A program made the translations under genes and the position numbers. 64,000 nucleotides of DNA from NCBI GenBank assembly GCA_965216875.1, contig OZ244207.1, forward strand, positions 5,568,001 to 5,632,000. The letters run 5' to 3'. The DNA comes from Rubripirellula sp. Lineage in GTDB: Bacteria; Planctomycetota; Planctomycetia; Pirellulales; Pirellulaceae. Shown here piece by piece: positions 31,500-64,000 of the stretch. Position 1 is the first letter of the stretch, and the number at the start of each line of letters is the position of its first letter. Below the pieces are notes generated by a model, which saw only the letters and a program-made list of their open reading frames with translations, searched no databases and was not told the origin of the DNA.

Positions 31500-31515
31500 G
31501 GGCCGGCATCGACGC

Positions 31516-31931: not shown

Positions 31932-32452
31932 CACTGTGTGCAACTCCATGGAATTGAATTCGCGAAGATTAGGTGGGGAGTAGCGGCGTAAGGTCCAAGA
32001 CTACTGCAATTTGATAGCAGGCCTCGTGCACTCCCAATGCCTAGCGTTCGGACGCCACCTTTTCTGGCCTGCCCTGTAGGTTCAGTGTTGTGTTCGCCGT
32101 TGAGAACGGAGGTTCGCAATCGAGTTACGGACGACCGCACAATCGGAATTCGGTACGCCTTCAAACAGTCCGCCATGCGGGTGTGCCGATAAGCACAATG
32201 CTGATTGGTACCAGCGTGTTTGCTCGGTTATGTACCCTGTGCCGGGCAAGCAGTGGGATGACTGCTTATTTGCCTGAGCGGTCCCCATTTACCGTCCGCC
32301 CAGGTATCACAAGTGCCCTTGGAGTGCCTGGGCGGACCCATTTAGTCCACGGGTGACCACAGCGAATCTGAGGTTAACGGATATCTCGCTCAGCGTTGGC
32401 GATCAATGAATTCATCAGCACGTTACGTCCAATTGTCAACGTGCTGTGCAAC

Positions 32453-42450: not shown

Positions 42451-42885
42451 CTATCCCCGTGATTGAATATCGCTGCTCGACAGATCCTTGTCCGCCCCCG
42501 TGCCGCCTTCTTTGTGATCCGCTCCGTAACAAAGAACATCGTAGGGACGCGTCTTTCCTGGCGAGACGTATTCGTATGGATTGCCCCAGGGATCGTTTGG
42601 CACAAAACTCAGAATGCCTTCAGCGAACTTGTCGGTTGGCGTGGCAAGGATGGCAAGCCCCTCTTGGCTTGTCGGGTAACGGTCGTACATCGTGTAAAAG
42701 GTTTCGAGCGCTTCGCACACCTTGCTAATCTCCACCTCGGCCATGCCTTGCTTGCTGGTGATCAGGTAGCCGCGAACGCTTAGCGTCACCGCCCCCGTCA
42801 ACAGTCCTAGGATCACAAGCACGACCATCATTTCGACGAGCGTGAATGCCTTCGTTGTTACATGATCTCTATCCCGCAAGGACAT
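42451..42885 (-). CDS. gspG: Type II secretion major pseudopilin
   Basis: AFTLVEMMVVLVILG, RYPTSQEGL, DPWGNPYEYVSPG, YGADHKEGGTGADKDL. Confidence 0.92.
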   Translation of the reverse strand: MSLRDRDHVTTKAFTLVEMMVVLVILGLLTGAVTLSVRGYLITSKQGMAEVEISKVCEALETFYTMYDRYPTSQEGLAILATPTDKFAEGILSFVPNDPWGNPYEYVSPGKTRPYDVLCYGADHKEGGTGADKDLSSSDIQSRG

Positions 42886-44077
42886 TGCCTGCCTCCAATA
42901 TCGGAAGTACGGTTGCAAAAAGTATGAAGCCGACAACGATCGAGAGCATGACGATCAATGCCGGTTCCAGGATCGTGGTCATTCGTGTGGCGAGTTGTTC
43001 CGCCTGGCGATCGTAGTCATCACCGAGTCGCTGCAACATGCGATCGAGTTGCCCGCTTTGTTGGCCAAGTGCAAATACCTGTGCGATTGAATGTGAAAAG
43101 ATCGGGTGCTTTTGTGCCGACTCTCTTAGGTCACGCCCTACCTTGAGATCTTCTTGCATCTCGGACAACGCGGAACGCAGCAATCGGTTGGTAGCTGAAC
43201 GTTCAGCGATCGCCAGGGCATCAACCAATTCCACGCCAGAACGCAGCAGACTGCTCACCACAAGTGCCATACGGCTAAGGGCTTGCTTTTGTACGAGCGT
43301 CCCAACAATGGGCAACGTCAATGCAACCCGATCAAGCCGGACTCGCCCACGCTCCGTTCGTAGGTGCGCTACTAGGCCAACCATGAGCAATGCCAGCCCA
43401 ACGAAAACGAATGGACCGTAGTCGAGCAGCGTGTCGCTTATCCATTTCAATATAAGCGTTGGTAGCGGCAGGTCCTGTCCCATCTCAAGCAGATTCTGAA
43501 GCAACATGGGGACAACAACGGTCATCAGGAAAACGGTCACCGCAACGCTGATCACCATCACAATCATCGGGTACAGTAGCGCCGAGATGACGCGATCCTT
43601 GAGCTGGCCGCTTCGTTCGCGAAAACCAGCGATGTGCTCGCAGACTTCATCGAGGTTACCCGCGTGCTCGCCGACGCGAACCATGCCGATCGTCATTTCG
43701 TCGAAGATCGTCGGTTCATCGGCCATTGCATCGGCGAGGCTTGATCCGCTCGACACTTTGTCTCGGACGGCGAGCATAGCATCGTGAAAACCGCCTCGCG
43801 TTTGCGGCAGCAACGAATCGATAGCGTCCAGCAGCGATACACCCGCTTGCAGCAGAGTGGACAACTCGCGTATCGCGTCGGTCAATTGATTCCTGTAACG
43901 ACCTGTCCGGCGTATCGTGAGCGTTTGGCCTTTGCTCGATGCTCGTTCGGCGACCGACTCGACGCGCAACCCGCTGCCGCGCAGCTGCTGCCGCGCATGT
44001 CGCCCGCTGGCCGCAGTGATCGTTCCGCGGCATCGCCGTCCGGTCTGATCGATCGCTCTGTATGCAAAAGTTGCCAT
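42869..44077 (-). CDS. gspF: Type II secretion inner-membrane platform protein
   Basis: MATFAYRAID, ELSTLLQAGVSLLDA, VGEHAGNL, ALLYP, LPLPT, LEPALIV. Confidence 0.93.
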   Translation of the reverse strand: MATFAYRAIDQTGRRCRGTITAASGRHARQQLRGSGLRVESVAERASSKGQTLTIRRTGRYRNQLTDAIRELSTLLQAGVSLLDAIDSLLPQTRGGFHDAMLAVRDKVSSGSSLADAMADEPTIFDEMTIGMVRVGEHAGNLDEVCEHIAGFRERSGQLKDRVISALLYPMIVMVISVAVTVFLMTVVVPMLLQNLLEMGQDLPLPTLILKWISDTLLDYGPFVFVGLALLMVGLVAHLRTERGRVRLDRVALTLPIVGTLVQKQALSRMALVVSSLLRSGVELVDALAIAERSATNRLLRSALSEMQEDLKVGRDLRESAQKHPIFSHSIAQVFALGQQSGQLDRMLQRLGDDYDRQAEQLATRMTTILEPALIVMLSIVVGFILFATVLPILEAGNVLAG

Positions 44078-44111
44078 CGCCCCGTTTCAGTCGTTCCTTG
44101 CTTCTTTGTTG

Positions 44112-45584
44112 CTAAAGTGCAGTACGCATCGTGACTCGGTCAATCTCTTCGCTGGTGGTCACACCCGCTTCGACTTTTTCAAGTCCCGATTCTCGCAACA
44201 ATCGCATGCCTCGATTGATGCCTGCTTCACGGATCTCTGAAGCATGCGCGCGACGTTGAATCAAATCGCGAATCGTATCGTCAAGCACTAGTAGTTCGTA
44301 GATGCCTTCCCTTCCACGATAACCTGTCCCTCGACAGGTTTGGCAAGAACTCACTTGTTTTTCGTGACCTCGACAGTTTGTGCAAACCCGTCGCACCAAC
44401 CGTTGAGCCATCACGGCCAGGACACTACTGGATACCAAATAGGGCTCAATCCCAAGGTCTAGCATTCGTGTGACTGCACTTGCGGCGTCATTCGTGTGCA
44501 ACGTGCTGAAAACCAAGTGTCCTGTCAATGCAGCTTGCACGGCCATCACCGCGGTTTCTTGGTCGCGTATCTCGCCGAGCATGATGATGTCGGGATCCTG
44601 TCTCAAAACGCTTCGTAGACCACTAGCGAACGTCATTCCTTTCTTCGTGTTGATTTGCGTCTGACTGATACTCTCGAGCTGGTATTCGATGGGATCTTCG
44701 AGCGTGACCGCGTTTCGTGAATCTGTATCAAGCTCCTGCAGCGCTGCGTAAAGCGTCGTGCTTTTGCCGCTTCCCGTTGGACCGGTGACCAAGACCAGGC
44801 CGTGTTCGGCGTGGATGACACTTTGGAACCGGTTCAATGTTCGAGTGTCCATGCCAATTTCAGCCAATTCGTAGAGCCTGGCGCTCTTGTCGAGCAGTCG
44901 AACGACAACGCGTTCGCCAAAGCTTGTTGGCATCGAAGCGAGGCGCAGGTCAATGATTCGCTGGCCAACACATACGGTCGCACGTCCATCTTGTGGCAAA
45001 CGTTTTTCGGCGATATTCATTTTCCCGGCGACTTTGAGCCGACTCACAACTTCATCCTGAACCGACTTTGGAATCTGCCGCACTTCGGTCAGCACACCAT
45101 CGATCCGCATGCGCACAACCATCGACTCTTCGAATGGTTGTAAATGGATGTCAGAAGCACGCTGTTGGATCGCGTCAAGAAGTAAAGAATTGACAAGCTG
45201 AACGACTGGACCTCGCGTGTCTGTCTCAAGCAAATCGTCGCGATTGACATTTGTCGGAGCATTTAACAACTCATCCAAGCTAACCGCATCGGAGTTTGCC
45301 AATGAGTTTCGCGATGCCTGTTTTTCATAAGCTTCATCGATCAAACCCTGAAGTTTTTCTACGTCAATCAGCTCGATGGCAATCGGGTTTCCCAGCAGTC
45401 GACCGATGTTGTCAGACAAGCGGTGCGACACTTCGCCGCCGCAAAGCAGTCGAACTTGGTCCTTATCGTCGCATGCTGCCAGGACATTATGCCGCCGGCA
45501 ATACTCAATCGAAAATCGTTCAAGAAAAGGCGCATAAGCCTTCCAAGTTTCAATCGGTCGTGTGTTGGTTGTTTCACTTCGCAT
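44112..45584 (-). CDS. gspE: Type II secretion ATPase
   Basis: ASDIH, EKRLPQDG, GPTGSGKSTT, TLEDPIE, LRQDPDIIMLGEIRD, TGHLVFSTLHTND, CTNC..CQTC. Confidence 0.95.
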   Translation of the reverse strand: MRSETTNTRPIETWKAYAPFLERFSIEYCRRHNVLAACDDKDQVRLLCGGEVSHRLSDNIGRLLGNPIAIELIDVEKLQGLIDEAYEKQASRNSLANSDAVSLDELLNAPTNVNRDDLLETDTRGPVVQLVNSLLLDAIQQRASDIHLQPFEESMVVRMRIDGVLTEVRQIPKSVQDEVVSRLKVAGKMNIAEKRLPQDGRATVCVGQRIIDLRLASMPTSFGERVVVRLLDKSARLYELAEIGMDTRTLNRFQSVIHAEHGLVLVTGPTGSGKSTTLYAALQELDTDSRNAVTLEDPIEYQLESISQTQINTKKGMTFASGLRSVLRQDPDIIMLGEIRDQETAVMAVQAALTGHLVFSTLHTNDAASAVTRMLDLGIEPYLVSSSVLAVMAQRLVRRVCTNCRGHEKQVSSCQTCRGTGYRGREGIYELLVLDDTIRDLIQRRAHASEIREAGINRGMRLLRESGLEKVEAGVTTSEEIDRVTMRTAL

Positions 45585-45676
45585 TTGCGAAATCTGATTT
45601 AAGGATCAATGAAGTGCGTCGCGCTCCGCACGCTATTGTCGCCTTTCGCTCCGCGAAATTTGCGCCGCTTGTAGGA

Positions 45677-45710
45677 GAGAAGATTCCGGCTAAAGCTCGG
45701 TACTACGAAC
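45677..45710. repeat. REP, GTAGTAC family, inside the island
   Basis: AGATTCCGGCTAAAGCTCGGTACTACGAAC, identical to the copy at about 765-794. Confidence 0.8.
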
Positions 45711-46159
45711 AACTGGCTCAAACAATCACAGCCGCCCCGCGAAAGTTGCAATTGCACAACGTTTTTATGCACATCACGCTACCTTGCCGAAGCCACGTCA
45801 AGCATACATCGCGTCGTGTCGCAACGAACAACGTACAAAAAGCTCAATGCGGCGTTGAGCGCGCACAAGTATGACTGACAACAAACGATCTAGATTTTTT
45901 TTGGAAGTCGTAAGTCACTATTGCGTGCGTCGTCGCAACGGCTCTTTCGCTTTGACAAAAACGGGAGTTGCGCGTTTGTAGTTTGGTTCTACTAAGAACA
46001 ACTTGCGCGCCTTCGCGATCATTTTATTTTGCCCAAACTGTTGACAACCGAATTCGGAACGGCAATTGTGAAATTACTACTCACGGGTGCGTTCGGTTCA
46101 CCGATTTCACTACGTGTATTTCTCCTCAAATAATGCATCCAATCGCTGGGGTACTGCGA

Positions 46160-48217
46160 ATGGGCAGACGGGCACTGAGTCTGTTTGTGGTGGGATTGTT
46201 GGCTATCCAGGCAGGGTTGCTAACTCATTCCGCCAAAACGAATAGTCCAACATTCGACGAAGTCGGGCATCTTGCTGCCGGACTTTCTCACTGGGAACTT
46301 GGACGTTACGAGCTTTATAGCGTTAATCCGCCACTCGTGCGGACGATCGCCGCGGCACCAGTTGCACTTTGGTCAAAACCAGAAGTCGACTGGGGGCACT
46401 ACCGCGACGATCCTTCAAAAAGAACGGAGATTTTCGTCGGTCGTCGATTGATCGAACTCAACGGCGAAGACTCCTTTAACCACTTCTTCTACGCCCGGTT
46501 GGCGGTGATTCCCATCGCCTTACTTGGCGGGTTGCTTTGCTTTCTCTGGGCGAAGGATTTGTTTGGATCCACCGCCGGCCTGATAGCGCTCGCGCTGTGG
46601 ACCTTTTCGCCAAACGTCTTGGCTTACGGGGCCGTTATTACGCCCGACATGGGGTCGACGGTCGCGTTATTGGGGACCAGCTATCTCTTTTGGCGTTGGC
46701 TGAAAGAACCGAGTCTGGGTTGGGCGTTTTCGCTCTCGGCCGCACTCGGACTGGCGATGTTGACCAAGTCGGTTTGGCTCGGTTTGCCGTTCGCATTTGC
46801 CGCAATCTGGTTGGCGGCGAGGGTCTTTGACCGTCGCTCGAAAACGGATGAAAGCGAGCAAGCTGGCGAAGGAGAATCTCGGTCAGCTTGGATTTCGGGT
46901 CGGCGTGGCGAGGCCTTGCAGCTCGTAGCCGTCGCCACGTTGGCTCTCGTCTTCGTCAACGGTTTCTACGGATTCGAAAAAACATTTAGTCGCCTTGGTG
47001 AGTTCTCCTTCGTTAGCACCAGCTTTTCAGGTAATCTGGCCGAGTTGGTCGGAAGCTACTCCGATTGCATTGGGTGCCCCGAGAACGATCGCTTCAATGT
47101 CGAAAAGGGGAATCGGTTCGCCGGATCACTTCTTGGTTCTGTGCCAGTCCCGCTACCGGCTAACTATTTGCAGGGGATCGATATCCAAGTCCACGACTTT
47201 GAACGTGGCGCGTACGATTCCGCTTGGAAAAGCTATTTGTTGGGCCAGTGGAAGCAAGGCGGCTGGTGGTACTACTACATCGTCGGGCTGTTCTTCAAGG
47301 TTCCGATCGTCATTTGGTTGATGCTTGGTGCGGGGTCAATTGCTGCCCTCTCCTGGCGACCCGAACGCCAAAAACTGTTGGGGGTGATCTGCCTATGGGG
47401 ACCCGCGATTGGATTGTTTGTCGTCGCAAGTGCCTGTACCGGATTGAACCGATACATTCGCTACGTGCTACCCGTCCTTCCAGTGCTTCTGATTTGGGCG
47501 AGTCAAGTTGGACGATGGGTGGAATCCACCAACGAGAACTTTCAAAAGAAAGCTCGCATTGCGATCGCAGTCGGTTGTGTTTGGCTAGCCGCGACATCGC
47601 TTTGGAATGCTCCCGGTCACCTCAGCTATTTCAACGTTGCCGCCGGTGGTCCGAGTCAAGGGCACGAGGTTCTCTGTGATAGCAACATCGATTGGGGGCA
47701 AGACCTGATTCGGTTAAAGCAGTGGATAGAAGACAACCCAGGCGAAAGCGGCGAACTTTCGTTGGCTTACTTTGGTGGATTCGATCCGGCGACGGTCGGC
47801 TTGCAGTACAAGTTGCCGCCAAGGTATTTCGGCGATAGCGATTCCCAGCAACCGGCCTTCCGGATGAGTCCGGGCACCTATGCGGTCAGCAAGAGTTTGA
47901 TTGCAGGCCATTCGATGCCAGTGCCCGATGGCTACAACCCCATGAGGTTCCGCCTCTTTGGTCCCGGCGTCTTTTCGTACTTTGGCGAGCTTGAGCCGGC
48001 CGGTCGGATCGGTCATTCGATCAATTTGTACAAGGTGTCCAAGGAGCAAGCCGACAAACTTGCGGTTGATTTGAATCAACGGACGCTTGAGATGCGAAAA
48101 CTGGCACGGCAGCGTCGCGAAGCTCAACAACCAACCGTCGCCAAAGCGAGACCGGCGCAGGTCGACGTTGCCAAAGATGAACAGCAGAGTGTGGTCGTAA
48201 CGGAATCGGAATCGTGA
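46160..48217 (+). CDS. ArnT/PMT-like (GT-C fold) integral membrane glycosyltransferase
   Basis: SPTFDEVGHL, NPPL, PNVLAYGAVITPD, AMLTKS, GWWYYY, IRYVLP, LSYFN, DSNIDWGQDL. Confidence 0.88.
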   Translation: MGRRALSLFVVGLLAIQAGLLTHSAKTNSPTFDEVGHLAAGLSHWELGRYELYSVNPPLVRTIAAAPVALWSKPEVDWGHYRDDPSKRTEIFVGRRLIELNGEDSFNHFFYARLAVIPIALLGGLLCFLWAKDLFGSTAGLIALALWTFSPNVLAYGAVITPDMGSTVALLGTSYLFWRWLKEPSLGWAFSLSAALGLAMLTKSVWLGLPFAFAAIWLAARVFDRRSKTDESEQAGEGESRSAWISGRRGEALQLVAVATLALVFVNGFYGFEKTFSRLGEFSFVSTSFSGNLAELVGSYSDCIGCPENDRFNVEKGNRFAGSLLGSVPVPLPANYLQGIDIQVHDFERGAYDSAWKSYLLGQWKQGGWWYYYIVGLFFKVPIVIWLMLGAGSIAALSWRPERQKLLGVICLWGPAIGLFVVASACTGLNRYIRYVLPVLPVLLIWASQVGRWVESTNENFQKKARIAIAVGCVWLAATSLWNAPGHLSYFNVAAGGPSQGHEVLCDSNIDWGQDLIRLKQWIEDNPGESGELSLAYFGGFDPATVGLQYKLPPRYFGDSDSQQPAFRMSPGTYAVSKSLIAGHSMPVPDGYNPMRFRLFGPGVFSYFGELEPAGRIGHSINLYKVSKEQADKLAVDLNQRTLEMRKLARQRREAQQPTVAKARPAQVDVAKDEQQSVVVTESES

Positions 48218-49017
48218 GCAGAAAGAAGAACAAAAAACAACCAGAGCAGGCAAGTCGTTTTCCCGTTGCCTTGTTGGCGGCCGTGTTTTTGCCACTCGTC
48301 GGCTTCACCGCCTATTCGACGATGCGTCAGCGGCCAGCGATCGAGGTGGCGGACGCTCCGCTTGCGATTCAAGCGCGCAACCAGGATGTGACCAGTGGTG
48401 GCATCGTGCGGCCTAAGACTGATGTCATGGTTCGTGGTGATGTTTCCGAAGTGGTCCAGCAGGTTCGCGAAATGCAAGAGGCGAGTTGGCCCACCGGATC
48501 TATCGAGGACCATTTGGACGAACTTCCAGTTCTCGATAAATCAATGAACGCCAACGTCAAGAACACAATCGAAGCGATCGAAACGGGCACGCATCCAGAG
48601 CGTTTGACACCAGTGATCCTGCCCAAAAAATTCGACCTCGCAGCGTACAAGGCGAACCCACAGGCTTACCTTGATGTCGTTGAACCGGGCCGAGTGTTTC
48701 AATCGGCCCAGCCTGGACGAGGTGTTCCCACCATCGGGTCGGGAAGTTCGATGTTTCAAACGCTCAAGCAAGGAGAGGCCGTTCGGCTTCGCGTCTTGAC
48801 CGAGCCTGGAGCACCGGTTAGTTGGACCTCATTCGACCTCGGGGCATTTGACAATCATCTTCCGTTGATCACCAAAGCAGCTAACGAAGAAGGTTGGGCC
48901 GAGGCAACGTTCACTGCAACCACGGGCACAACCGGCACGGTCAATATCCTGGCCGCCAGTCCGGTCGCGTCCGGACGTGTTGAATACGTCGTGACCATTC
49001 AAGAGCCGCAAGGCTAG
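48214..49017 (+). CDS. Membrane-anchored protein with C-terminal Ig-like domain
   Basis: Basic N-terminus plus one TM; C-terminal VRLRVLTEPGAPVSW..ANEEGWAEATFTATTGTTGTVNILAAS; GTGA overlap with the glycosyltransferase. Confidence 0.72.
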   Translation: MSRKKNKKQPEQASRFPVALLAAVFLPLVGFTAYSTMRQRPAIEVADAPLAIQARNQDVTSGGIVRPKTDVMVRGDVSEVVQQVREMQEASWPTGSIEDHLDELPVLDKSMNANVKNTIEAIETGTHPERLTPVILPKKFDLAAYKANPQAYLDVVEPGRVFQSAQPGRGVPTIGSGSSMFQTLKQGEAVRLRVLTEPGAPVSWTSFDLGAFDNHLPLITKAANEEGWAEATFTATTGTTGTVNILAASPVASGRVEYVVTIQEPQG

Positions 49018-49159
49018 TTGAAAACACAAATCCAATTGACGCTTGAATCGCAAGCGAGTGAATCTCGGTGTTTTTGCTGAGTCCTCGCAAACTACTTATT
49101 GACATCTAGCACACCATTCATCTTTGAGTTTTGGCACAGGACTCGTCTGGGGGACATCG

Positions 49160-52100
49160 ATGAATCCGCTTCGCAGGTTCGTAATTCGCTTGGTAGTGAT
49201 GGTCTTTGCGGCCGTATCAATTTGTTCGTATGGCTTCGCTCAAAACCCACCGCCACCTGAGATGGTGTGGGGCAATGTCAACTCTGAAGATGCAACACCG
49301 AGTCCGATCATTCGCCAGCCCGACATGCGAACCGCCACCGCTAATTCGGCCGTAAACGGATGTATGAACAAGGCCTGTGTGAGCGAGTGTCCGCCGCCTG
49401 CTGGGATTTCGGATGTATCCGGTTGGAATCCCTATGACTCTGGCCCGTTCGTAAGCGACTGGAATCCAAGTGGTTCGGGGCCACTTGGTCGAGGTGGCTG
49501 GAATCCAAGTGGTTCGGGGCCACTTGGTCGAGGTGGCTGGAATCCAAGTGGTTCGGGGCCGCTTGGTCGAGGTGGCTGGAATCCAAGTGGTTCGGGGCCG
49601 CTTGGTCGAGGTGGCTGGAATCCAAGTGGTTCGGGGCCACTTGGTCGAGGTGGCTGGAATCCAAGTGGTTCGGGGCCTCTTGGATGTGGAAGCGGGTCAT
49701 GTGGCTCAGGCGGACGCTCGGGTGGAGCGGGGATTCCGGCCAACCAGTCTCCTTTCTATTTCAGCACGATCACTGGTGGTGCCAACGGAAGACCTCTCCG
49801 GCAAGGCACAATCAACGGTATGTCGATGATCGAAGGATTCGGTCTCGACTACATGCACTGGGCCGACGACATCGTGCCGCGGATTCGTGGTGACATTGGT
49901 GTTCGACGTTTTCACCGCCCTCGTTTCAGCGCATGTGGTTCAAGCTTTGGCCCAATGGTGATGAGCAACTGGGATCTGAGACTCTACTTTCACCTCTACT
50001 ACGGCGGCGATACTTCGGTTGGCTACACGCAGATCTATGTGCGTGATCCAATCGCCCAGACACCTTACCGCCTCAATCACATCAGCTACGGCACTTACAA
50101 CGAAGGCGGGCACAACCTTCTAGCAGCAGACAAGGGAAAGTTTGTTCCCCAGACGGCAGGTACGATTAAAGAGGCGTGGGTGGGGCCAGAGCTCCCAGAT
50201 TCAAATACCGTTTGGGACTACAACCCTCAAGCAAGCTCAATCAATTCGAGCAACTTCTTCCTAGCACACGAAGACGTTCGAACGGCCACGATGACGGGCT
50301 GGGATGGAGTGGTTTATGAGTTCGAGCTAATGAAGATTCCCGACCAGACCGCGTGGGAGCAAGTCCTCGACCAACAATGGTTGTACATGAACGGACTGCC
50401 TGGCTATTCCCAGGCGGCGTATTACGGCTCCGAAATCTACAACTACGTGATTCAAGGTCGGCTCACCAAAATCACCATCCCAGGCAATCGGTCGTACACG
50501 ATCAGCTACAAGAGCTGGACGCCGATGGAGATCTATGACTCGTGGGAGCGTGTTTGGCAGATTGACACCATTACTTCGGAAACGGGGCAAACACTGACCT
50601 ACACTTATGGTGCGCAAACAGTCGCCGGCCAGTGGGCTGTCAGCAACATTGCCAACAGCAATGGCAAATCAGCAAGCTACACCTACACCAATGACTACCT
50701 TTCGCAGGTCACACGAAGCGACGGCACGACATCAAGTTTTACCAACGGCTTCGATTCCGTGGCCAATGCCGCGTCGATTGAATTCGATGATCCCGCAGCC
50801 GAAAACGGACATCGCAAGAAGACCATTCTGCTGTCGTCATCATCTGCGGGGACAAGTGGATTCTACTTCGCGGGTTCGATGAACTTGATTCGATCCGTTG
50901 TCAATGCCGCTGGCGAAGTAGCCTACGCGAGCATTCCGGTCATGAACTATTCCGCGCCGAGTGGGCAGGGTCTTTCGGTTTTCAACTATGTCGGCGGCGG
51001 CCGGATGATGCGCAACGTACCAGCGGGTGGGGCAAACCTGAATGCAACGGGCGCTTTTTGGCGGTGGTCTTCTTACATGGAAGGCGGCTGGCAAATGTCA
51101 GTCAATAATGGGGCGATGGAATTCACCGGCGACGCGGAATCTCCCATAGCCGTTCACGAAAGTACCGGTCTCTGGGGAACATTGGGCAATCTCTACCCCA
51201 CCACGGTTGACGAACGTGGCCTAACCCAGACGCACGAGTACGACAATGGCTGGCTCGTACGGACCAACTATTCCGACGGCTCGTTTGAAACATGGTGTCG
51301 TGATGGATCAGGACGTGTCACTCGTTACCGCGACCGCAACGGCAATGTAACGAAGTATGCGTACCACTCATCCGGCGCGTTGTCTCTGAAGGAAGTTGGA
51401 CTTACCGACCACCCAAGCAACGTTGACGTCCCGCCAACACAATACGGAAGCGGTACGCCCTACGACTATTGTGCGACGAACGACGTCCAGACTGCTGATC
51501 ATGCTGTCTATCAGTGGACGTACAACGCCGATGGACAACTACTCGCCAGTATCGACCCACTTACAAACCAGACTGACTACAACTATGACGCACAGGACCA
51601 ATTGATCGAAATCAAGGCTCCCCAGGTTACAGGTGAATCAGGTCGCGCCACCACGACGATGACCTACCATCCGTCCGGCAAGCTGAAAACGATGACCGAT
51701 CCTGTCGGAACGGTCATCGAGTACTTTTACGATGGCCAGGATCGCTTGATCAGCACTCTCTACGATGATGGCACAACCGATCGGACTGAATACGAAACGG
51801 GCACCAACGGCTTCGGGCTTCCCGCCAAGACCATTGACCGACTTGGCGTCGTCACCACTTACGAATACGACGCGGCGGACCGGTTGATCAAGAAGGTGGC
51901 CGCTGCGGCCCAGATGGACGGTGCGACCGAAACACCCACACCCGAGCTCGCCTCGACTTCCGAATGGAAATACCTCGAAGGAACAAACGACCCGATCGCA
52001 ACCCGCGTCGATGGCCGCGTGACGACCTACAAGTACGACTACCGCGGACGCCGAATCGAAACAAAGGTCTATTCGTCTGCTGGCGTTTCGAAGGTTGTTC

Positions 52101-55891: not shown

Positions 55892-55892
55892 G

Positions 55893-56483
55893 ATGAAAGC
55901 AAGATTGGCACAGATGTTCGCCGTCTTTTTGGTGGTCTTTTCAATTCCACTAATACGTAGGCAATATCTGCAATGGGAATTCGAAAAAGCGAGGGAATCG
56001 TCGCTACGCAATACTTATAGCGTGGGATGGAAAACCGATTCGCCAGATCCGATGACAAGAGCGTTTGCGATTCGCCATGAAACTGTCGTTGATCGTATTG
56101 CAAGTGTGCAATTTCCTATTGCTGATGACCCTAGACTGATTTACGCCCTTTCGTATTCTGATTCTCTTGGTTGTTATCTTGTCGTTGACTGGTTAGGCAC
56201 TAATGAGGTCGAGGGCGTAAAGCTTGTGTTTAAGGAATCTAGTCATTACGTTGCATTTGGTGAAGGTGACCTTATTCCGAGAGAGTCAGCAAAGGGGCTT
56301 TATGTTTGGCGGAGTATCGAAATACCTCGCGAGTTGCCGTTCGCGATGTTGGACCACATCCAACTTGTCGGTCCAAACAATCAATCCATTGGCGCAGCTC
56401 TAAAGGATGTCGTTGTAGTACCAAGCAACTCGGGGACGGAGGAAGATAAAGGGAAGAGAAAAGGGGACGGGGGTCTTTTTTAA
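55893..56483 (+). CDS. Candidate Rhs immunity protein with N-terminal TM/signal
   Basis: ATG 1 nt after the Rhs stop; MKARLAQMFAVFLVVFSIPLI; AT-richer like the Rhs tip; role inferred from position. Confidence 0.7.
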   Translation: MKARLAQMFAVFLVVFSIPLIRRQYLQWEFEKARESSLRNTYSVGWKTDSPDPMTRAFAIRHETVVDRIASVQFPIADDPRLIYALSYSDSLGCYLVVDWLGTNEVEGVKLVFKESSHYVAFGEGDLIPRESAKGLYVWRSIEIPRELPFAMLDHIQLVGPNNQSIGAALKDVVVVPSNSGTEEDKGKRKGDGGLF

Positions 56484-56497
56484 GGGCTTGGCCGAAT

Positions 56498-56650
56498 CTA
56501 GGATGAAGTCTTTCTCGTTGATGGGAAGTCAGCACTGCCGAGACGAACTCGATCCTCCGCTGCTGTCGCCTTGGCCCATCCGTCGCTCACCCGACACACA
56601 ACCAAGAAGTGAGCATCGTCCTGAACTGGGAGATTTTTGAACCGGGTCGC
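56498..56650 (-). pseudogene. Remnant of a REP-associated tyrosine transposase (RAYT, Y1 family)
   Basis: RFKNLPVQDDAHFLVVCR resembles the RAYT segment RFKSFPVQ-D-H---CRY, broken at the catalytic Tyr position. Confidence 0.6.
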
Positions 56651-57249
56651 GCGCGTCAAGGCGGCTACACCGTTTGCCGGGAAGGCAAGAGTTTCTGCAT
56701 GAGAGCTAACCGCACCAATCAGAGATAGCGCTGCGCGCGGCCATTGAAAAACCGGCCGAAAACTTGCAGCTCCAGACCTAAGTGACCCGATCGAAGCCAG
56801 GAGACAGCTTCGAATCAACACAATGGTCTCGCTAGTGGTATGTCCCCATGTGCCCCATTTTGGGCGAGGAGTGCTTGCGGGGTCTTCCGCGAGGTCGGAT
56901 CGTGGACCATAGACCGAGCCGATCAGCAATCGATTCTGTCCAAGTAGCGTCTCCGAACGGGCGCTCTCGTTGGACACTGGTCCGAATAGCTTCACGCTCC
57001 CGGCGTTAATCGAAACCGGCAACCGGTTGCATAACCTCGTATGCAATCGACCCGGTCACAACGTCCCGTGACCATGCGGAAGGTCTTACCAAAGGAGTGC
57101 ACTGATTCGAGGGCAATGCGGGGGCGCGTCTTTGAGTGTTCGGAGGGGACTCGTTGCCTCGTCCACTACCATAATCTCGCCCACTACTAAGATGGCGACG
57201 GGCTATAATCGAGTCGGTGTATGTGAATCGGTTTGAATGGTCAGGCTTC

Positions 57250-57798
57250 ATGATTATGTACGGCAAGGCGAATTGCAGAGATCTCGCTCGCCCCAAAGCG
57301 TTTACGCTCCTTGAGATCATGGTGGTGGTTGCAATTCTTGCAATCGTGTCGGCGTCGGCTGTCTTGGCAGTTCGCCAACCTCTTGCCGACACCCAGCACG
57401 AACTCACCGTTTCAAAACTGCGATGGCTTGACTCGCTGGTAAGGGGGCGAGCCGAGCGGTTTGGTCAGGCGGCGCTCGAAATCGATGCTCAGCTCGGTTC
57501 GGCTAGCGTTTCGACCGGTATGGACCGATCGGGTCGTCGCGCGGTGGATCATAGGATGGTAGTCGACCAGCCAACGCACATTCACACTGTCTTGGGGCAC
57601 AACGAGAAATCGAACGAAGGCGTTTATCGAATCGTCTATAATCGTTTTGGCCGGTGTTCCTCCTACGCCATTGAGCTCGGTGACAAGCACTCGTCTCAGT
57701 GGCTGCTGGTGCTTGGATTGACCGGCCAGACGTACAACTTCGATGATCGGGGCAAGGTGGATGCGATTATTGCGGCCGAGCGGAATGACGCTGATTGA
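57250..57798 (+). CDS. Minor pseudopilin, GspH-like
   Basis: KAFTLLEIMVVVAILAIV; first gene of the right-hand gsp operon. Confidence 0.8.
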   Translation: MIMYGKANCRDLARPKAFTLLEIMVVVAILAIVSASAVLAVRQPLADTQHELTVSKLRWLDSLVRGRAERFGQAALEIDAQLGSASVSTGMDRSGRRAVDHRMVVDQPTHIHTVLGHNEKSNEGVYRIVYNRFGRCSSYAIELGDKHSSQWLLVLGLTGQTYNFDDRGKVDAIIAAERNDAD

Positions 57799-58171
57799 AG
57801 TCGTTGCCGGCATCGCGTTGCTGGGCACGCTCATGGTCGCTGTCTTGATAAGCGGTAGCCAACATCTACGTCAGTTGAAGGCGGCTGACCAGAAGCGGCA
57901 AGCTACAGCCAAGCTCGACGACTTTTTAGCTGCCTGGGCGTTGCAAAACTTTTCCGATGACGGTCTGTCGGTTGCAGCGGCTCGTGCTGGATTGAGCGTG
58001 GCTGACCACCCCGTTGCATCTGATTCGACGCAAACGTCCTATGTCGTGGAAGTAAGTCCACGCCCGGCGTTGATCGACGGCGGCAAAGTGCTGCGGCTCG
58101 ATGTTTCGGCTCAACGACCTAACGGAACACGCCGTCCGGCAGCTTGGGCAGAGATTCTGGTGGAACAATGA
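57761..58171 (+). CDS. Minor pseudopilin, GspI-like
   Basis: RPSG|MTLIEVVAGIALLG. Confidence 0.8.
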   Translation: MRLLRPSGMTLIEVVAGIALLGTLMVAVLISGSQHLRQLKAADQKRQATAKLDDFLAAWALQNFSDDGLSVAAARAGLSVADHPVASDSTQTSYVVEVSPRPALIDGGKVLRLDVSAQRPNGTRRPAAWAEILVEQ

Positions 58172-58686
58172 GGGTTTGTGGTTCCAGACACGCACCTCGA
58201 CATGGCCTTACGCTGGTCGAGCTAACCGTTGCGCTCGCGCTATCAGCGATGCTAATGGCTGGCATCGTCGGTTTGTTGCGCGGCTTGAATCAACAATCAG
58301 AGCTTGCTGAAGAATACGACACCGATGTTTGGCCTGCGCGATTTGTCTCTTTGATTCGAAGCGATTTGATGTCCGCCCAGTCGTTATGGGATGGAAGCGG
58401 CGTGATTTGGATGAGGCATGATGCGTCGGGCCAAGCACAGAGCCGGGTTGGGTATCGTTGCCGTACTTTGACTGAAGGGCTCAGCGTGCTGGAACGAATC
58501 GATGCAGACGCTGTGTCCGTTTTGGCGATCGGGCCCGCACGTGTTGACGTGGAGAGGCTTGATGCCCAGGGACTTCCACAGCCGATTCCGAACACGCCTG
58601 GACCAGTGCCAACCCAGGTTCGCATCTGGGTATGGGATGGCGAGAACACCGAGCCGGTTGTCCTTCGTGATCTGGTGTTGCGATGA
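58168..58686 (+). CDS. Minor pseudopilin, GspJ-like
   Basis: RHG|LTLVELTVALAL, IRSDL, C-terminal PTQVRIWV. Confidence 0.8.
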   Translation: MRVCGSRHAPRHGLTLVELTVALALSAMLMAGIVGLLRGLNQQSELAEEYDTDVWPARFVSLIRSDLMSAQSLWDGSGVIWMRHDASGQAQSRVGYRCRTLTEGLSVLERIDADAVSVLAIGPARVDVERLDAQGLPQPIPNTPGPVPTQVRIWVWDGENTEPVVLRDLVLR

Positions 58687-59531
58687 CGTCTATCGGCACA
58701 CGGACACAGCGCCGCGGGTTTGTCCTATTGATGGTTGTCGTAATGATCGCCATCGCAGCCATGATTTTGGCCCGACTCGCGAGCACTTCTCTGCGGGTTG
58801 CGTCGGTCGCTGTTGAAGAGGAACGCGAGATGCGAGAGCGTTGGGCAGTGGCCAGCCTGCGTCGGTATTCCTTTGAGACAGCGCCGAGGTTGTTTGCTGG
58901 TCTTTCAGATCAAGATGCCAACGACGGGACGCGAGCGGTCTTTTGGCAAGACGTGAGACTAGCTGGCGAGACCTGGAAGATCGTTGTGGCGGATGAGTCG
59001 GCAAAACTGAACCTCGCGAAGTTCCGAGGCCAGATCGGAAGTGACGATTGGTCGACCGATGTTGAACCGCTGCTCGAAACAAATTCGGTACGATTTAATT
59101 CGAGCATTGAGGCACCTCGATTGCGATGGGGCGACTGGCTCGAGGCGGCCGGTAGTTCCCGGTCGCCTTCGGCCGAGGCGGTCGCAACCGCAACGCAGCG
59201 CATCACGCTGTGGGGCGATGGTCGACTGAACGTCATGCAGTGTGATGATGAAACGCTTGGCATCGTTTGGAGACGACAGTTCGGCCATGCGCCACCGGCG
59301 GTGCTGCATCAGATGCGATCACAGCAACCGCCGCCGACAACACAACAAATGATGGCCGCATTGGATCTGCGGGATTCCCAGCGAGACAAGGCGAACAACT
59401 GGATCACGGCCGAAAGCCGTTGCTATTCGACTTGGGTATTTTGCAGAACGAGCCATCGAGTCCCCGCATCGCTCTTTGTAGAATGGGGGCAGTCGGGAGC
59501 TGCGAAGGAGCATCGCGGTTACCAATACTAA
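58683..59531 (+). CDS. gspK: Minor pseudopilin GspK-like
   Basis: RRG|FVLLMVV (no Glu5), DESAKLNL, ITLWGDGRLNV. Confidence 0.85.
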   Translation: MTSIGTRTQRRGFVLLMVVVMIAIAAMILARLASTSLRVASVAVEEEREMRERWAVASLRRYSFETAPRLFAGLSDQDANDGTRAVFWQDVRLAGETWKIVVADESAKLNLAKFRGQIGSDDWSTDVEPLLETNSVRFNSSIEAPRLRWGDWLEAAGSSRSPSAEAVATATQRITLWGDGRLNVMQCDDETLGIVWRRQFGHAPPAVLHQMRSQQPPPTTQQMMAALDLRDSQRDKANNWITAESRCYSTWVFCRTSHRVPASLFVEWGQSGAAKEHRGYQY

Positions 59532-59563
59532 GGCAGTGGTTCGGGCTTCGCTCGGGGTACAAA

Positions 59564-60091
59564 TTGAACGACAAGCATTCTCGTCTCGCTCTGGGAACCG
59601 CCAGTTTGATCTGCGCGTCTGGTGCTTCGGCTCTCATCTCAGCCGCAGTCCTCTTTCCACCTGCGATACCGGTTGTTGAACACAGCGCGGTGGATAGCCG
59701 ATTTATTCCTCAACCCACTTCCGTAGCCGGACGCGAAGAACTGACGGAAGAGGATTTTCAGTTTGTGTGGGGAAAGAAGCTGCAGCAGCCAAAAGAACAA
59801 CCCAAGCCAAGGCCTAACCGTCCCGCCAAAAAGGTCGAGCCTCCCAAACCACCGCCGAAGCCAGCAGTACGGTTAAACGTTTCAGTCACCGGGATCATCA
59901 AAACGGGCGACTACTCACGTGCATGGTTGTCCGTTGATCGGCGAACTGTAGCCGTTTCGCCTGGTGACGTAATCGAATCCCACCCGGGTTCGCCAACGGT
60001 GAAGGAGATCGGAGAACGAGAGGTCGACATCGAATTGGCCGGCGAGATGCATACCGTGTCACTCCCCGACTCCGAGATGATGGCCGAATGA
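59564..60091 (+). CDS. GspC/PilP-like protein
   Basis: TM, Pro/Lys linker, then LNVSVTGII..RAWL..VSPGDVI..VKEIGEREVDI (HR-domain-like); TTG start inferred. Confidence 0.65.
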   Translation: MNDKHSRLALGTASLICASGASALISAAVLFPPAIPVVEHSAVDSRFIPQPTSVAGREELTEEDFQFVWGKKLQQPKEQPKPRPNRPAKKVEPPKPPPKPAVRLNVSVTGIIKTGDYSRAWLSVDRRTVAVSPGDVIESHPGSPTVKEIGEREVDIELAGEMHTVSLPDSEMMAE

Positions 60092-61347
60092 TTGAATCGC
60101 TTCATTCAAATGAATTGGAACCAGTGGTCCCGGCGTTGTTCGTCGCTGATGGAAGCTGCGCTATTCATGGCGACGGCGATGACGAGAGCGTTGACGCAGG
60201 TTCGATTGTCGTTGGATTGACGAGTCAACAATGCGTCTGCGTCAGTGGAACGTCCAGCAACCGCAGGTCGAGTCGCAGTTTGCTTGTCTATGATCTTGAA
60301 GACGAATTGCCCATCGATGGCGATGCATTGGCGATTGCACAGATCGATACAGCGGAGGGTGCATTTGTCGTCGCATGCGACGGCGACGAACACTGGGAGG
60401 CGGTTGCGAATCTTGAAGACCGAGGCTACTACGTTCGCGCAATCACTCCGCTGGTCTTTCTCGCCCTTGGCACGCTCGCAAAATCGAGGTCGCTGAAATC
60501 GCTTAGCACGATTATTTGGCAGAGTGGCAACGGGATCGACATTGTGACACTCTCTCGTGGCAAGGTGATTGACTGGCGATGGATTGCGGCGGAGCAGCGG
60601 ACAGCTGCGGAGTATGCTGATTCCGTGGGGGAAAACGAAGGCGGCGTCTGCCTTGTAGACGTCGATGTCGAATTGAGTGAGGCCTTTGCGGGTCTCGGAG
60701 ACGTCGAGGTCGAGTCGATCCCGCTGCGTGCAGCGGCAGAGGAGGAAGCGGATCGGATCGCAAACGGGTTGGCGGTGCCAATGATCGATCTTCGAAACGG
60801 TCCGCTCGAGTCCTCACAACCGCTTCGTCCAATTGCCAGTTCTCTCCGATTGTTCATCGTTTGTTTCTTTGCATTGCAGGCTTGCGTTGTCGGTGCGATT
60901 GCGGCTCGAAGCTCCTATCTAAGGTCGCTCGCAAGTCAGCTTGTCGACAAACAAGAAGCAGCGTTTGAGACGACCTTTCCTGGTGAACGTGTGCCAGTCG
61001 GAATCATTTCGCGACTACAAAGCGAGCAGCGACGACTGGCCGGTACACGCGGCGTTTCAGGTCCGTCGATGCCGCAGCTTCGTTCTGCGATTCCGATTAG
61101 CCATAAGCTGCTCAGTTCGATGCCCGAACAGAATGATGCGACCTACTGGCTGAGTCGACTCGAGTTGCAACCCGATGCTATTGGTGTGATGGAAGGCGAA
61201 GCCGAGTCCTACGGTGATCTCGAGTTGATAGCCGAACGAATGCGTATCGCCGGCCTTGACGTTCCCCCGGTTTCGGCAACGCAAACCTCCAAGGGCGTTT
61301 CACTTCGCTTCGAGGAGATCGGTGTTGCGAGTGAGGCCGAACAATGA
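60088..61347 (+). CDS. GspL-like protein
   Basis: Cytoplasmic domain (YDLEDELP, IDLRNG), one TM, AFETTFPG; operon position. Confidence 0.75.
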   Translation: MIESLHSNELEPVVPALFVADGSCAIHGDGDDESVDAGSIVVGLTSQQCVCVSGTSSNRRSSRSLLVYDLEDELPIDGDALAIAQIDTAEGAFVVACDGDEHWEAVANLEDRGYYVRAITPLVFLALGTLAKSRSLKSLSTIIWQSGNGIDIVTLSRGKVIDWRWIAAEQRTAAEYADSVGENEGGVCLVDVDVELSEAFAGLGDVEVESIPLRAAAEEEADRIANGLAVPMIDLRNGPLESSQPLRPIASSLRLFIVCFFALQACVVGAIAARSSYLRSLASQLVDKQEAAFETTFPGERVPVGIISRLQSEQRRLAGTRGVSGPSMPQLRSAIPISHKLLSSMPEQNDATYWLSRLELQPDAIGVMEGEAESYGDLELIAERMRIAGLDVPPVSATQTSKGVSLRFEEIGVASEAEQ

Positions 61348-61886
61348 ACCAGTTCTCGAGATCAGCCTATTGGGTGTTGTTCACCCAGGCACTTCTGTTG
61401 GCGCTGATGATTTGGATGGGCCTGCGATTAAGTGACGCCCACGCTTCACTTAAGGACAGCGCCGACAATGAGAAACTCGCCGTGAAACTTGCAGCTGAGA
61501 TCGAGCAGTTGCGAGCAATGGATTCAGTCGCAAACGATGACGAAAACCAGGTGCGCATCGAAAACTCGCAGGTCGTTGAGCTAGCCAGGATGTGCGGTGT
61601 CACCGAACCTCAGATTGCTTCGATCCAGCGTTTGCCTTCCGAAGGGATCAAAAACACGGATTATCAACGGCACGACACATCCCTACAGTTCCGCGCCGTC
61701 ACCATGGAGCAATTGCTGCGAATGGGATTGATCATGGAGCGTGAACGGCCCTCGGCGAAGGTGACTGCGATCCATTTGACAAGCAACCGTCTGCCAAATG
61801 CCCAACACAAGGGCAATCAGGAGCTCTGGAATGTCGAGCTGATCTTGACGCAATTGGTCTACGTTGCGAGAAGTGCCATCAACTGA
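61344..61886 (+). CDS. GspM-like protein
   Basis: TM, coiled coil, ferredoxin-like end (AVTMEQLLR..VTAIHL..WNVELIL); follows GspL. Confidence 0.7.
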   Translation: MNQFSRSAYWVLFTQALLLALMIWMGLRLSDAHASLKDSADNEKLAVKLAAEIEQLRAMDSVANDDENQVRIENSQVVELARMCGVTEPQIASIQRLPSEGIKNTDYQRHDTSLQFRAVTMEQLLRMGLIMERERPSAKVTAIHLTSNRLPNAQHKGNQELWNVELILTQLVYVARSAIN

Positions 61887-61949
61887 CGTTAAGCTGGGAA
61901 GGATTCCAGCACTTTTGAGGGCACTTCATTCTGCGGCAGGACTACGCAG

Positions 61950-62846
61950 TTGGCAGGACGCGTTTTCGCTTCGAATCTATGGAAAACGGCTGCGGTTGCC
62001 GCTGCGCTGATGCTCGGTGGCTGCGGTTCCCTGATTCACCGTCATGACACGCACGCTGTGCCCTACACAACACAGCCACCACATGACTCCGTGGTGAATG
62101 AACAGGCGCGACTACTCAACAAACGTGGCCTTCATGCATTTGAGATTGGTAATCTTCTCAAGGCGGAGCAACTTTTCCGCGAGGCTCTCGAGGCCGACGT
62201 GAACTTTGGCCCAGCGCACAACAACCTTGGCCAAGTCTACCTGGCTCGGCACCAGCTCTATCTTGCAGCTTGGGAATTTGAGTACGCAGCCAATCTCATG
62301 CCCGAACTCGTCGAGCCGATCATTAACCAAGGGTTGGCATACGAAACAGGCGAACGGCTCGAACGAGCTGCGGAGATCTATCAAGACGCATACTCGCGAC
62401 TGCCCAGTCATCCGGTCGCGATAGCAAGCTTGGTTCGCTGCAAGGTCAAACTCGATGCGGATCCTTATGAGATTGCTTTCTTGCTGGACGAGCTGATCAT
62501 GCACGACGGGCGTCGTGAATGGGTCGAGTGGGCAAAGGAGTTGCGAGCAACCAAATACCGTAACGATTGCTTGGAATGCGGCGAGCACCAGTCGCATCAG
62601 CAGTTCGACGACCAGTCATCGGATCGTCAACCAAGCTTAGGGCGAGATGAGTTCGATCGTGAATCGGATTCACTCAGACGCGAGTTGTTGCCGATGACCG
62701 AGCCAGTGCCCGGCCGGCCAGATGACGAGTCAACAGAGAGTACGAAGCCGAGCGTGCTTCTGCCTGGGGATGGAACTGCAGACCGGTCGCTCGGGTTCGA
62801 GCTGCCACCGATCCCAAATGATGTAACCCAAGGGCCACGCGAATGA
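61950..62846 (+). CDS. TPR lipoprotein, PilF/PilW-like candidate pilotin
   Basis: LGGC lipobox; TPRs (AEQLFREALEAD..AHNNLG); directly before the secretin. Confidence 0.75.
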   Translation: MAGRVFASNLWKTAAVAAALMLGGCGSLIHRHDTHAVPYTTQPPHDSVVNEQARLLNKRGLHAFEIGNLLKAEQLFREALEADVNFGPAHNNLGQVYLARHQLYLAAWEFEYAANLMPELVEPIINQGLAYETGERLERAAEIYQDAYSRLPSHPVAIASLVRCKVKLDADPYEIAFLLDELIMHDGRREWVEWAKELRATKYRNDCLECGEHQSHQQFDDQSSDRQPSLGRDEFDRESDSLRRELLPMTEPVPGRPDDESTESTKPSVLLPGDGTADRSLGFELPPIPNDVTQGPRE

Positions 62847-64000
62847 CCAGAAACAAAATGATCGCGCTGAGATTCGCGGTGTGCCTTGCCTCCATGTTGG
62901 CTGTTGCATTCGGTGGAAGGCTAGCCGCTCAGCCAGTGCCGCCGCAAAAGACAATGCTGCTGCAAGGTGAAGTACCGCTCTCGGGCTTCATCGACTTCAT
63001 GTCAAAACAGCTTGGTGTGCGTATTCTGTATGACGAATCCTTAAGTAAGAAGAACGTCAACCTGATCGCCCCCGATCCAATCCCTGCCGAAAGCCTTCCC
63101 GAGGTTCTGCAGACGGTGTTGATCAATGAGGGGTTGGTGATCACCGACACGGATCGCCAAGGATTCAAGCGGATCACAACTAATGCTCAGATACCGATCG
63201 TGGCTCGTCCGAGCAATGCGTCCGAGGACTTGACCAAAGTTGACGCCGCGGTGCCCCTCACACGCGTGTTTGTGTTGGGCGAAAGTCAGCCGACGAAACT
63301 CGCCGAGCTGATCAAACCTTTTCTTACGGGAACAGGTGCAACGGCGATTCCGCTCGATCGCAGCGGATTGTTGGTTGTGACCGATGTGGCAAGGAACATT
63401 CGCCGCGCCGAACAACTCATACGCGTGCTTGATGGTGAATCGACTCAGGTCGAAATCGAGTTCGTCCCTGCCAGAAATGTTGCGGTCAACGACTTGGCGG
63501 ACCAACTTCGCGAATTGTTGTTGGCAAGAAAGAAGGCGATGGGCACGGGCGAGGACGCTGCGGGTGGACTTGAGGTATCAATCGACGCGCGAACCAACAG
63601 CCTGATTTTAATTGGGACGACGTTCGAAATCACACAGGCACAGCGTCTGCTAAGTCAGCTCGACAAATCGCTCGACACACAACAACGTGCCTTTACCCTT
63701 CGTTTTTTCTCTGCAGAAAAGCTTGATTCGATCGTTCGAGACATTGTCGACGGCCAGCCACTGAAACCTCCGTACCAATCGCGCGTCGAAGGAAACGTGT
63801 TGATCGTCAGTTCGACACCGGAAGTGCTGCAGTTGGTCGACCGAACTCAGAGGCAACTCGATACGCGAGAAGCACCCGAAGGCCAGAGTCCGGTTCGCTT
63901 CTACAAGATCAAGAACGTTCCTGCCCAGGAACTCGTCGAGACGATTCGAGGCATTGGCGGCCGAGTCACCGCGACACCGCAACGACAAACACTTCCGCCA
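62843..64000 (+). CDS. gspD: Type II secretion secretin, N-terminal part (runs off the window)
   Basis: Not in the ORF track. ATG 62843: signal peptide, N0 domain (LSGFIDFMSKQLGVRILYD), KH-like N domains (LAELIKPFL, IDARTNSLILIG..LLSQLD, VRFYKIKNVPAQELVETI). Confidence 0.88.
   Translation, partial: MTRNKMIALRFAVCLASMLAVAFGGRLAAQPVPPQKTMLLQGEVPLSGFIDFMSKQLGVRILYDESLSKKNVNLIAPDPIPAESLPEVLQTVLINEGLVITDTDRQGFKRITTNAQIPIVARPSNASEDLTKVDAAVPLTRVFVLGESQPTKLAELIKPFLTGTGATAIPLDRSGLLVVTDVARNIRRAEQLIRVLDGESTQVEIEFVPARNVAVNDLADQLRELLLARKKAMGTGEDAAGGLEVSIDARTNSLILIGTTFEITQAQRLLSQLDKSLDTQQRAFTLRFFSAEKLDSIVRDIVDGQPLKPPYQSRVEGNVLIVSSTPEVLQLVDRTQRQLDTREAPEGQSPVRFYKIKNVPAQELVETIRGIGGRVTATPQRQTLPP

Follow-up and report, generated by a model that had tools for sequence, protein, structure and literature searches.

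A type II secretion gene cluster with an embedded Rhs module on a Rubripirellula genomic island

Related systems and the layout of the locus

We analysed a 64,000-nt stretch of Rubripirellula sp. DNA (contig OZ244207.1, positions 5,568,001 to 5,632,000; the window) in which the gene for an Rhs/YD polymorphic-toxin-type protein lies among the genes of a type II secretion system (T2SS, gsp genes). T2SS-dependent Rhs activity is already known. Bcn-A of Xanthomonas perforans is an antibacterial Rhs/YD protein with a downstream immunity gene, an arrangement shared with the window's Rhs, and its supernatant activity is lost in a gspD (xpsD) mutant (PMC7259588). Bcn-A differs in its length (1398 aa) and in using an ordinary Xps system encoded elsewhere; the accessible part of that report notes no co-encoded gsp genes and no upstream partner combining a transmembrane (TM) segment with an Ig domain. 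Zhang et al. 2012 (PMC3482391) classed toxins with a signal peptide and RHS repeats as 'T2SS/Sec-dependent', with planctomycetes among the carriers. Signal peptide, RHS repeats, variable tip and immunity gene are common to that class and to the module described here. In the accessible text of that paper 'T2SS' is used for export by default through Sec, and no signature neighbours appear in Table 1, whereas here a near-obligate partner and a linked Gsp machine are found.

The PAAR-Rhs effectors of type VI secretion systems (T6SS), of which the RhsA, Tse5, Tse15 and Tre23 shells are in the PDB, resemble the module in their YD shell, core, swappable tip and immunity protein. Unlike the PAAR-Rhs/EagR systems, the module has no link to PAAR, VgrG or EagR, and it has a Sec-type signal, a longer shell and cysteine-rich tips. 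Large Myxococcus Rhs proteins, WapA and teneurin-like proteins (PMC10433427, PMC13018210) are likewise large, signal-peptide-bearing, T6SS-independent YD toxins; the accessible sections of these sources identify no delivery machine, whereas the present locus also encodes a candidate route out through the outer membrane. The available parts of two further reports tie T2SS to bacterial competition (PMC13729183) and place T2SS-like loci upstream of giant Omnitrophota genes (bioRxiv 2023.11.21.568195).

The literature searched, which covered few subscription journals, holds no description of gsp-embedded Rhs loci of Planctomycetota (the supplements of PMC3482391 could list some) and no dedicated co-encoded T2SS for Rhs. 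The locus type is real and conserved, and apparently undescribed; set against what is available on Bcn-A, the co-encoded, probably dedicated machine is apparently the new element. We consider it fairly likely that the island-borne T2SS and its partner-Rhs-immunity cassette form a dedicated export route for predicted antibacterial Rhs toxins that is independent of T6SS.

Positions are window coordinates unless marked genome, and G000 denotes the window's own genome. The locus holds the second complete gsp set of this genome. Leftward run gspG, gspF and gspE; rightward run a GT-C glycosyltransferase (GT) gene, the partner gene, the Rhs gene, an immunity candidate, gspH-I-J-K-C-L-M, a TPR lipoprotein gene and gspD. 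Every gene named in a first-pass annotation of the window was recovered in its place and order.

42451..42936, minus strand: gspG, major pseudopilin (PF08334 and TIGR01710, both above cut-off)
42869..44077, minus strand: gspF (PF00482; TIGR02120 the top NCBIfam match, below its cut-off)
44112..45584, minus strand: gspE ATPase of the module-linked subclade (PF00437; TIGR02533 at 575 bits against TIGR02538 at 488 bits; GspE tree)
46160..48217, plus strand: GT-C fold membrane glycosyltransferase (PMT_2, E 2.7e-12; 7 hydrophobic segments; open reading frame from 45968, start uncertain)
48214..49017, plus strand: Rhs partner, 267 aa, overlapping the GT stop (TM at about residues 16-37, helical region 77-162, Big_1-like Ig domain 168-265)
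49160..55891, plus strand: Rhs/YD polymorphic-toxin-type protein, 2243 aa from the ATG (Sec-type signal peptide, linker, shell, Rhs core)
55349..55891, plus strand: variable C-terminal tip of the Rhs, 180 aa with 7 Cys (GC 0.47)
55875..56483, plus strand: candidate immunity protein, 202 aa with an N-terminal TM, overlapping the Rhs stop (assigned from position and GC, 0.46)
57217..59531, plus strand: gspH, I, J and K, minor pseudopilins (N_methyl motifs in H, I and J; K from its place and its homologue in the paralogous cluster)
59267..61886, plus strand: gspC-, gspL- and gspM-like platform genes (weak NF041515 and TIGR01709 matches; M by position)
61950..62846, plus strand: PilW-like TPR lipoprotein, candidate pilotin (TIGR02521, E 1e-10; lipobox-like LGGC)
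62843..64000, plus strand: gspD secretin, 5' part (Secretin_N and GspD N0 domains; Gsp model best)

GspE, GspF, a GspD with N domains, GspG and the minor pseudopilins H, I, J and K are all present, as expected of a T2SS. Gsp models are the top NCBIfam matches for GspE, GspF and GspD, though under the equivalog cut-offs, and gspD, which ends beyond the window, encodes 782 aa when complete. The gspC and gspL products match GspC_delta (E 1.9e-5) and GspL (E 1.4e-7) weakly. GspK has no Pfam match and is assigned from its position and pilin-like N-terminus, and the gspM product, which matches no family, from position alone; the positions of gspC, gspL and gspM are kept across related clusters. The locus encodes no prepilin peptidase, and Peptidase_A24 genes are found elsewhere in the genome.

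The same genes could instead build a surface filament (a long pseudopilus, type IV pilus-like) for contact or Rhs display, with the GT-C glycosylating pilins and the Rhs not being a soluble secretin substrate. The PilW-like lipoprotein and the large size of the cargo would suit such a filament, as would the position of the GT beside gspG or gspE/D, and not the partner, in two other genomes (G002 C4 and G394). We nevertheless think a filament improbable, since the best-scoring models for GspE, F, G and D are those of T2SS, C and L match T2SS models weakly, no PilT is encoded at the locus and the G-H-I-J-K-C-L-M order is T2SS-like.

A paralogous cluster with the same gene set and a GspE 55% identical to that of the window lies at genome 7.005-7.017 Mb with no Rhs there, making the window's cluster an extra copy. 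Contigs of X4, which may be the source sample, are identical over the whole stretch; the gene layout is therefore no assembly artefact. Contigs of a further run, X1, which may be RNA, are identical over 46091-56755 and join the GT, the partner and the start of the Rhs, as well as tip and immunity gene, with only short pieces on gsp genes; this run was given no weight as evidence of expression. A promoter scan gave matches at chance level. Short dispersed multi-copy repeats occur at 45670-45740 and 56545-57170, the two gaps that border the GT-partner-Rhs-immunity block.

Linkage of the module to gsp clusters and the island

Partner loci were obtained with an alignment query, a genome-contig scan with the single partner protein having given nothing. 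A locus was scored as gsp-linked if at least 2 gsp genes lay within 10 kb and as evaluable if it had at least 8 kb upstream. On this basis 23/50 evaluable partner loci are gsp-linked, and by genome 23/31. Chance would give about 2%, since only 2.1% of G000 is found at 10 kb or less from a gspE/F cluster, and neither of the two remaining full-length Rhs genes of this genome has gsp neighbours. In the phylum sample 4/8 evaluable genomes were gsp-linked by eye, three of the eight overlapping other loci counted, and among metagenome contigs linkage was found at 4/8 loci. The first-pass annotation had staked its reading on the Rhs block being conserved within gsp clusters of relatives, and the Ig-Rhs block does recur in or beside such clusters across Planctomycetota and Verrucomicrobiota. 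The cassette sits between E and H, between C and K, after M, after D or after E, depending on the cluster, and this variety indicates that the linkage outlasted rearrangement. A chance insertion of the Rhs block into an unrelated gsp cluster might be read from its splitting of the usual G-H adjacency and from its varying position between genomes, but linkage recurs in two phyla and in 23 of the 31 genomes that could be evaluated, and such an event is very hard to credit.

The partner is found in 23/401 family genomes. In the same 401 genomes the GspE lineage, set by E <= 1e-118, is present in 16/23 partner-positive and 51/378 partner-negative genomes (Fisher p 7e-9, a value inflated by kinship). 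In a GspE tree of 43 rows (fast LG+G4, SH-aLRT support only) the window's GspE belongs to a 10-row subclade (SH-aLRT 99.3), of which 9 rows are module- or Rhs-linked and the remaining one is truncated, a remnant. A sister 10-row subclade (SH-aLRT 99) holds the genome's other cluster; no full-length Rhs was found in the flanks read there, two rows being mostly one-sided and G186 having a fragment. Two unlinked clusters of the sister subclade (L212 and L219, in G244 and G185) are preceded by a gene of ~2600 aa, TPR-like in G185, whose product is a possible different substrate or partner.

Several observations weigh against a dedicated machine. No gsp cluster lies within 10 kb at 27/50 evaluable partner loci, and one genome (G220) has six unlinked partner loci and one distant gsp cluster. 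The partner is missing from 51/67 genomes with the wider GspE lineage. Conversely, 7/23 partner-positive genomes gave no GspE of the lineage; one of these has gspD and gspH beside the module, and in G204 and G009 (93% complete) the GspEs detected all belonged to other lineages. The linked GspEs also span more than one lineage: those of other classes and of Verrucomicrobiota fall outside both subclades, so the gsp-module association is either old or repeated. As the loci were gathered via the partner gene, the linked share of the GspE tree is biased upward.

Such figures would be expected if the partner-Rhs-immunity cassette were self-sufficient, leaving the cell by Sec and any resident T2SS, by vesicles or by lysis, with gsp a frequent, non-dedicated fellow traveller. 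The 27 unlinked loci and the two genomes, G204 and G009, without this GspE lineage in the search agree with this, as do the window-type gsp genes of G002, which are scattered over three places, and the use of an ordinary Xps system by Bcn-A. Linkage far over chance at many insertion points argues the other way, and so does the near-all-linked GspE subclade: G000, G002 and G394 each retain a member of it in addition to a paralogue that is not linked. We regard a self-sufficient cassette as unlikely. The dedicated, mobile T2SS for Rhs claimed in the first-pass annotation therefore stands in part: recurrent linkage, a module-linked GspE subclade and an integrated element speak for it, the unlinked modules against it.

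In a wider-lineage gsp cluster of G002 (L196-L197, G002:C4:530001-570000) two Rhs genes (2111 and 2151 aa) are interspersed among the gsp genes, which suggests that the gsp-Rhs link is broader than the Ig partner family. Each of these Rhs genes is preceded by a signal-bearing gene of ~610 aa, PA14-like by eye and unrelated to the Ig partner; these are possibly a second partner family.

The locus is island-borne, as had been noted from the letters of the window. The island of ~43.3 kb interrupts comM and extends ~11 kb beyond the window end. Its left border comprises two features.

31514..31930 (approx.), minus strand: comM/yifB 3' fragment, left island border (Mg_chelatase_C at 31543-31845, genome 5599543-5599845)
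31934..31956, no strand assigned: left att-like arm, an imperfect inverted repeat (20/23, counted by eye) of the arm at genome 5643169-5643191

The 5' part of comM lies at genome 5643165-5644427, minus strand, 43 kb rightward of the 3' part, and comM is uninterrupted in the congeners G001 and G002. Imperfect inverted arms of 23 bp, read by eye, occur at both junctions, and a large serine recombinase of 589 aa adjoins the right one. In tetranucleotide deviation the island ranks 5 against 192 genome blocks. This split target gene, the border recombinase, the att-like arms and the composition mark the island as an integrated, putatively mobile element. The interval from gspD to the recombinase holds a DnaC/IstB-like ATPase and further phage- or plasmid-like genes; at the right end (L001:3398-13307) a replication-like gene, the DnaC/IstB-like ATPase, a family-less 716-aa gene and the recombinase are found. 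A second recombinase, 44% identical to that of the island, is encoded at genome 605 kb. Elsewhere on the island, an ankyrin-like 182-aa gene (32688-33236) is near-identical to genome 2940597-2941145, which neighbours an Rhs fragment, and is possibly an orphan immunity gene. A gene pair at 39364-40718 (159 aa; 336-aa multi-TM) has no Pfam or NCBIfam match.

The Rhs protein, its partner and the glycosyltransferase

The Rhs protein matches PF05593, TIGR01643 (repeats) and TIGR03696 (Rhs-associated core); module Rhs lengths are ~2000-2650 aa. Its linker is rich in Gly, Pro and Ser, with 13-aa repeats, and contains a 39-bp tandem repeat (49459-49683, 5.8 copies, 98% match). Two ARAGORN tRNA-Pro calls at 49444-49650 were rejected as artefacts of this coding repeat. 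A model of the N-terminal half (mean pLDDT 71.3) has a disordered linker and a beta-rich shell from about residue 230. Scored by a simple hydrophobicity rule, not SignalP, 54/60 Rhs have a signal-type hydrophobic N-terminus against 1/52 internal control windows, and a lipobox-like N-terminus occurs in only 1 of the 60. PAAR was found in 0/56 Rhs N-terminal segments, DUF6531 in 10/56 homologous segments, and PA14 and lectin domains in some. The absence of PAAR, VgrG, Hcp and EagR genes from the locus, reported earlier from the window alone, was confirmed; the vgrG of the genome is at 7.12 Mb. With signal-type N-termini, no PAAR and a vgrG ~1.5 Mb distant, the module Rhs do not have the make-up of T6SS Rhs effectors. 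Two giant Rhs genes of the same genome (4588 and 3982 aa; G000:C1:6606954-6620720 and 8048841-8060789) have no gsp nearby, and their N-termini bear what we take to be a likeness to a planctomycete extracellular-protein motif.

The Rhs has the organisation of a polymorphic toxin. YD repeats and core precede a variable tip, tips are hypervariable (0/780 pairs related among 40 unique tips), orphan tip cassettes lie 3' of the main gene in G002, G394 and G204, and an immunity-type neighbour follows. The GC of the tip and of the immunity gene is below that of the Rhs shell (0.56), as expected of a swapped cassette. Cysteine makes up 4.0% of tips versus 0.6% of the shell, and 26/36 genes downstream of Rhs have a hydrophobic start; cysteine-rich tips and membrane-type downstream genes would be consistent with proteins that fold under the oxidising conditions of the periplasm and with many targets on the envelope side. 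Pfam matches on 41 tips comprise one WHH nuclease, which is followed by a SUKH gene, two M76-like peptidases, one TGL and two weak hydrolase-like domains. The immunity candidate of the window has no Pfam or NCBIfam match. The window's tip is quite likely to be toxic. Against this, just 6/41 tips match an enzyme family, and the window tip itself has no Pfam match, no Atlas match and no homologue among longer proteins, the last being weak evidence.

A role mainly in adhesion or kin recognition would account for the many tips without an enzyme family. The Rhs would then be teneurin-like, with the cysteine-rich tips as ligands and the downstream membrane proteins as receptors; the PA14 and lectin domains of some N-termini and the membrane-anchored look of most downstream genes are in keeping with it. 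It would leave unaccounted for the WHH nuclease with its SUKH gene, the peptidase-, TGL- and hydrolase-like tips and the orphan tip cassettes, and the accessible text of one report describes a bacterial teneurin-like protein with a signal-peptide-dependent toxic tip (PMC13018210). We give adhesion as the main role only a slight chance.

Partner and Rhs are coupled in gene order. The count took in 78 partner genes no shorter than 150 aa, the window's own not among them, after removal of fragments and one duplicate; an Rhs gene lies directly 3' at 62/67 loci with at least 1.5 kb downstream; in 2/5 exceptions one short open reading frame separates the two. On metagenome contigs partner is followed by Rhs at 20/24 loci. 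The partner profile gathers 1010 clusters at 50% identity, 902 of them at E 1e-10. Named homologues come from Planctomycetota, the best from Stieleria neptunia (51%), and the family also occurs in Verrucomicrobiota and Lentisphaerales records. The partner was found in 11/401 phylum genomes, at least one of these hits being weak and probably spurious. Viral contigs yielded one partner locus (L294), with a serine recombinase nearby.

The window's partner has no Pfam or NCBIfam name and no Atlas match, and 3/114 partner members match Pfam Big_1 weakly. An AF2 model (mean pLDDT 87.6) starts with a TM helix, continues with a helical region and ends in a beta-sandwich. A fold search with residues 168-267 alone retrieved intimin/invasin Ig domains (Z 10.7, root-mean-square deviation 2.0-2.4), a fold likeness that shows no function. 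An N-terminal TM is present in 106/110 partner homologues. CpaB and Lif/LipB (PMC4713064) likewise have an N-terminal TM, a periplasmic domain and a gene beside that of a T2SS substrate, and on these two genomic features, TM and substrate-adjacent gene, the partner fits the membrane-bound T2SS chaperones as described in the accessible part of that source. It differs in having no sequence family match, a helical region with a Big_1-like Ig domain and a predicted client of ~2200 aa. By analogy we lean slightly towards a CpaB/Lif-like role of the partner, as chaperone or adaptor. In G463 (L192:2963-11026) a 2687-aa adhesin-like protein with a signal peptide ends in the partner module, and its gene lies directly upstream of that for a 2610-aa Rhs. 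This fusion counts against the proposed export role, as it would seem better suited to a tether outside the cell than to a chaperone that is retained.

The GT was examined as a core component and rejected as such: only 10/78 partner genes have one within 5 kb. The first-pass annotation had given the system its own glycosylation step, and this part of it is weakened. GT relatives occur in 52/401 genomes, the six nearest homologues are without exception encoded at module or gsp loci, and sequence finds no solved relative. The GT is an accessory in some lineages; that it modifies the Rhs, the partner or pseudopilins is possible but doubtful.

Proposed export route and its significance

We propose that Sec would take the Rhs across the inner membrane and that this protein would then fold and form disulfides in the periplasm, aided by the membrane-anchored Ig-fold partner. 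It would leave through the co-encoded GspD secretin and act on neighbours, its swappable tip being delivered as a predicted antibacterial toxin, while the membrane protein encoded downstream would shield the producing cell. The prepilin peptidase, GspO, would be supplied in trans. We judge passage of the Rhs through the island secretin likely. The size of the cargo speaks against it: a closed Rhs shell, with an estimated mass of ~240 kDa, would rank with the largest cargoes of T2SS and come close to the secretin in width.

A broader formulation can be offered tentatively, and we hold it a little short of even. A distinct T2SS lineage of planctomycetes and other PVC bacteria would be specialised for Rhs weaponry, with a new family of membrane-anchored Ig-fold adaptors loading disulfide-bonded Rhs cocoons of ~240 kDa onto a dedicated secretin. 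This would be a third Gram-negative Rhs route beside T6SS and Tc, and it would spread on serine-recombinase islands.

The locus supplies a machine, a candidate adaptor family of ~1000 clusters and many disulfide-rich tips with matched immunity candidates. If the proposal is true, the reach of T2SS would extend from bulk enzyme export to polymorphic-toxin warfare, the system would probe the cargo size limit of secretins, and Planctomycetota would gain a defined antagonism system.

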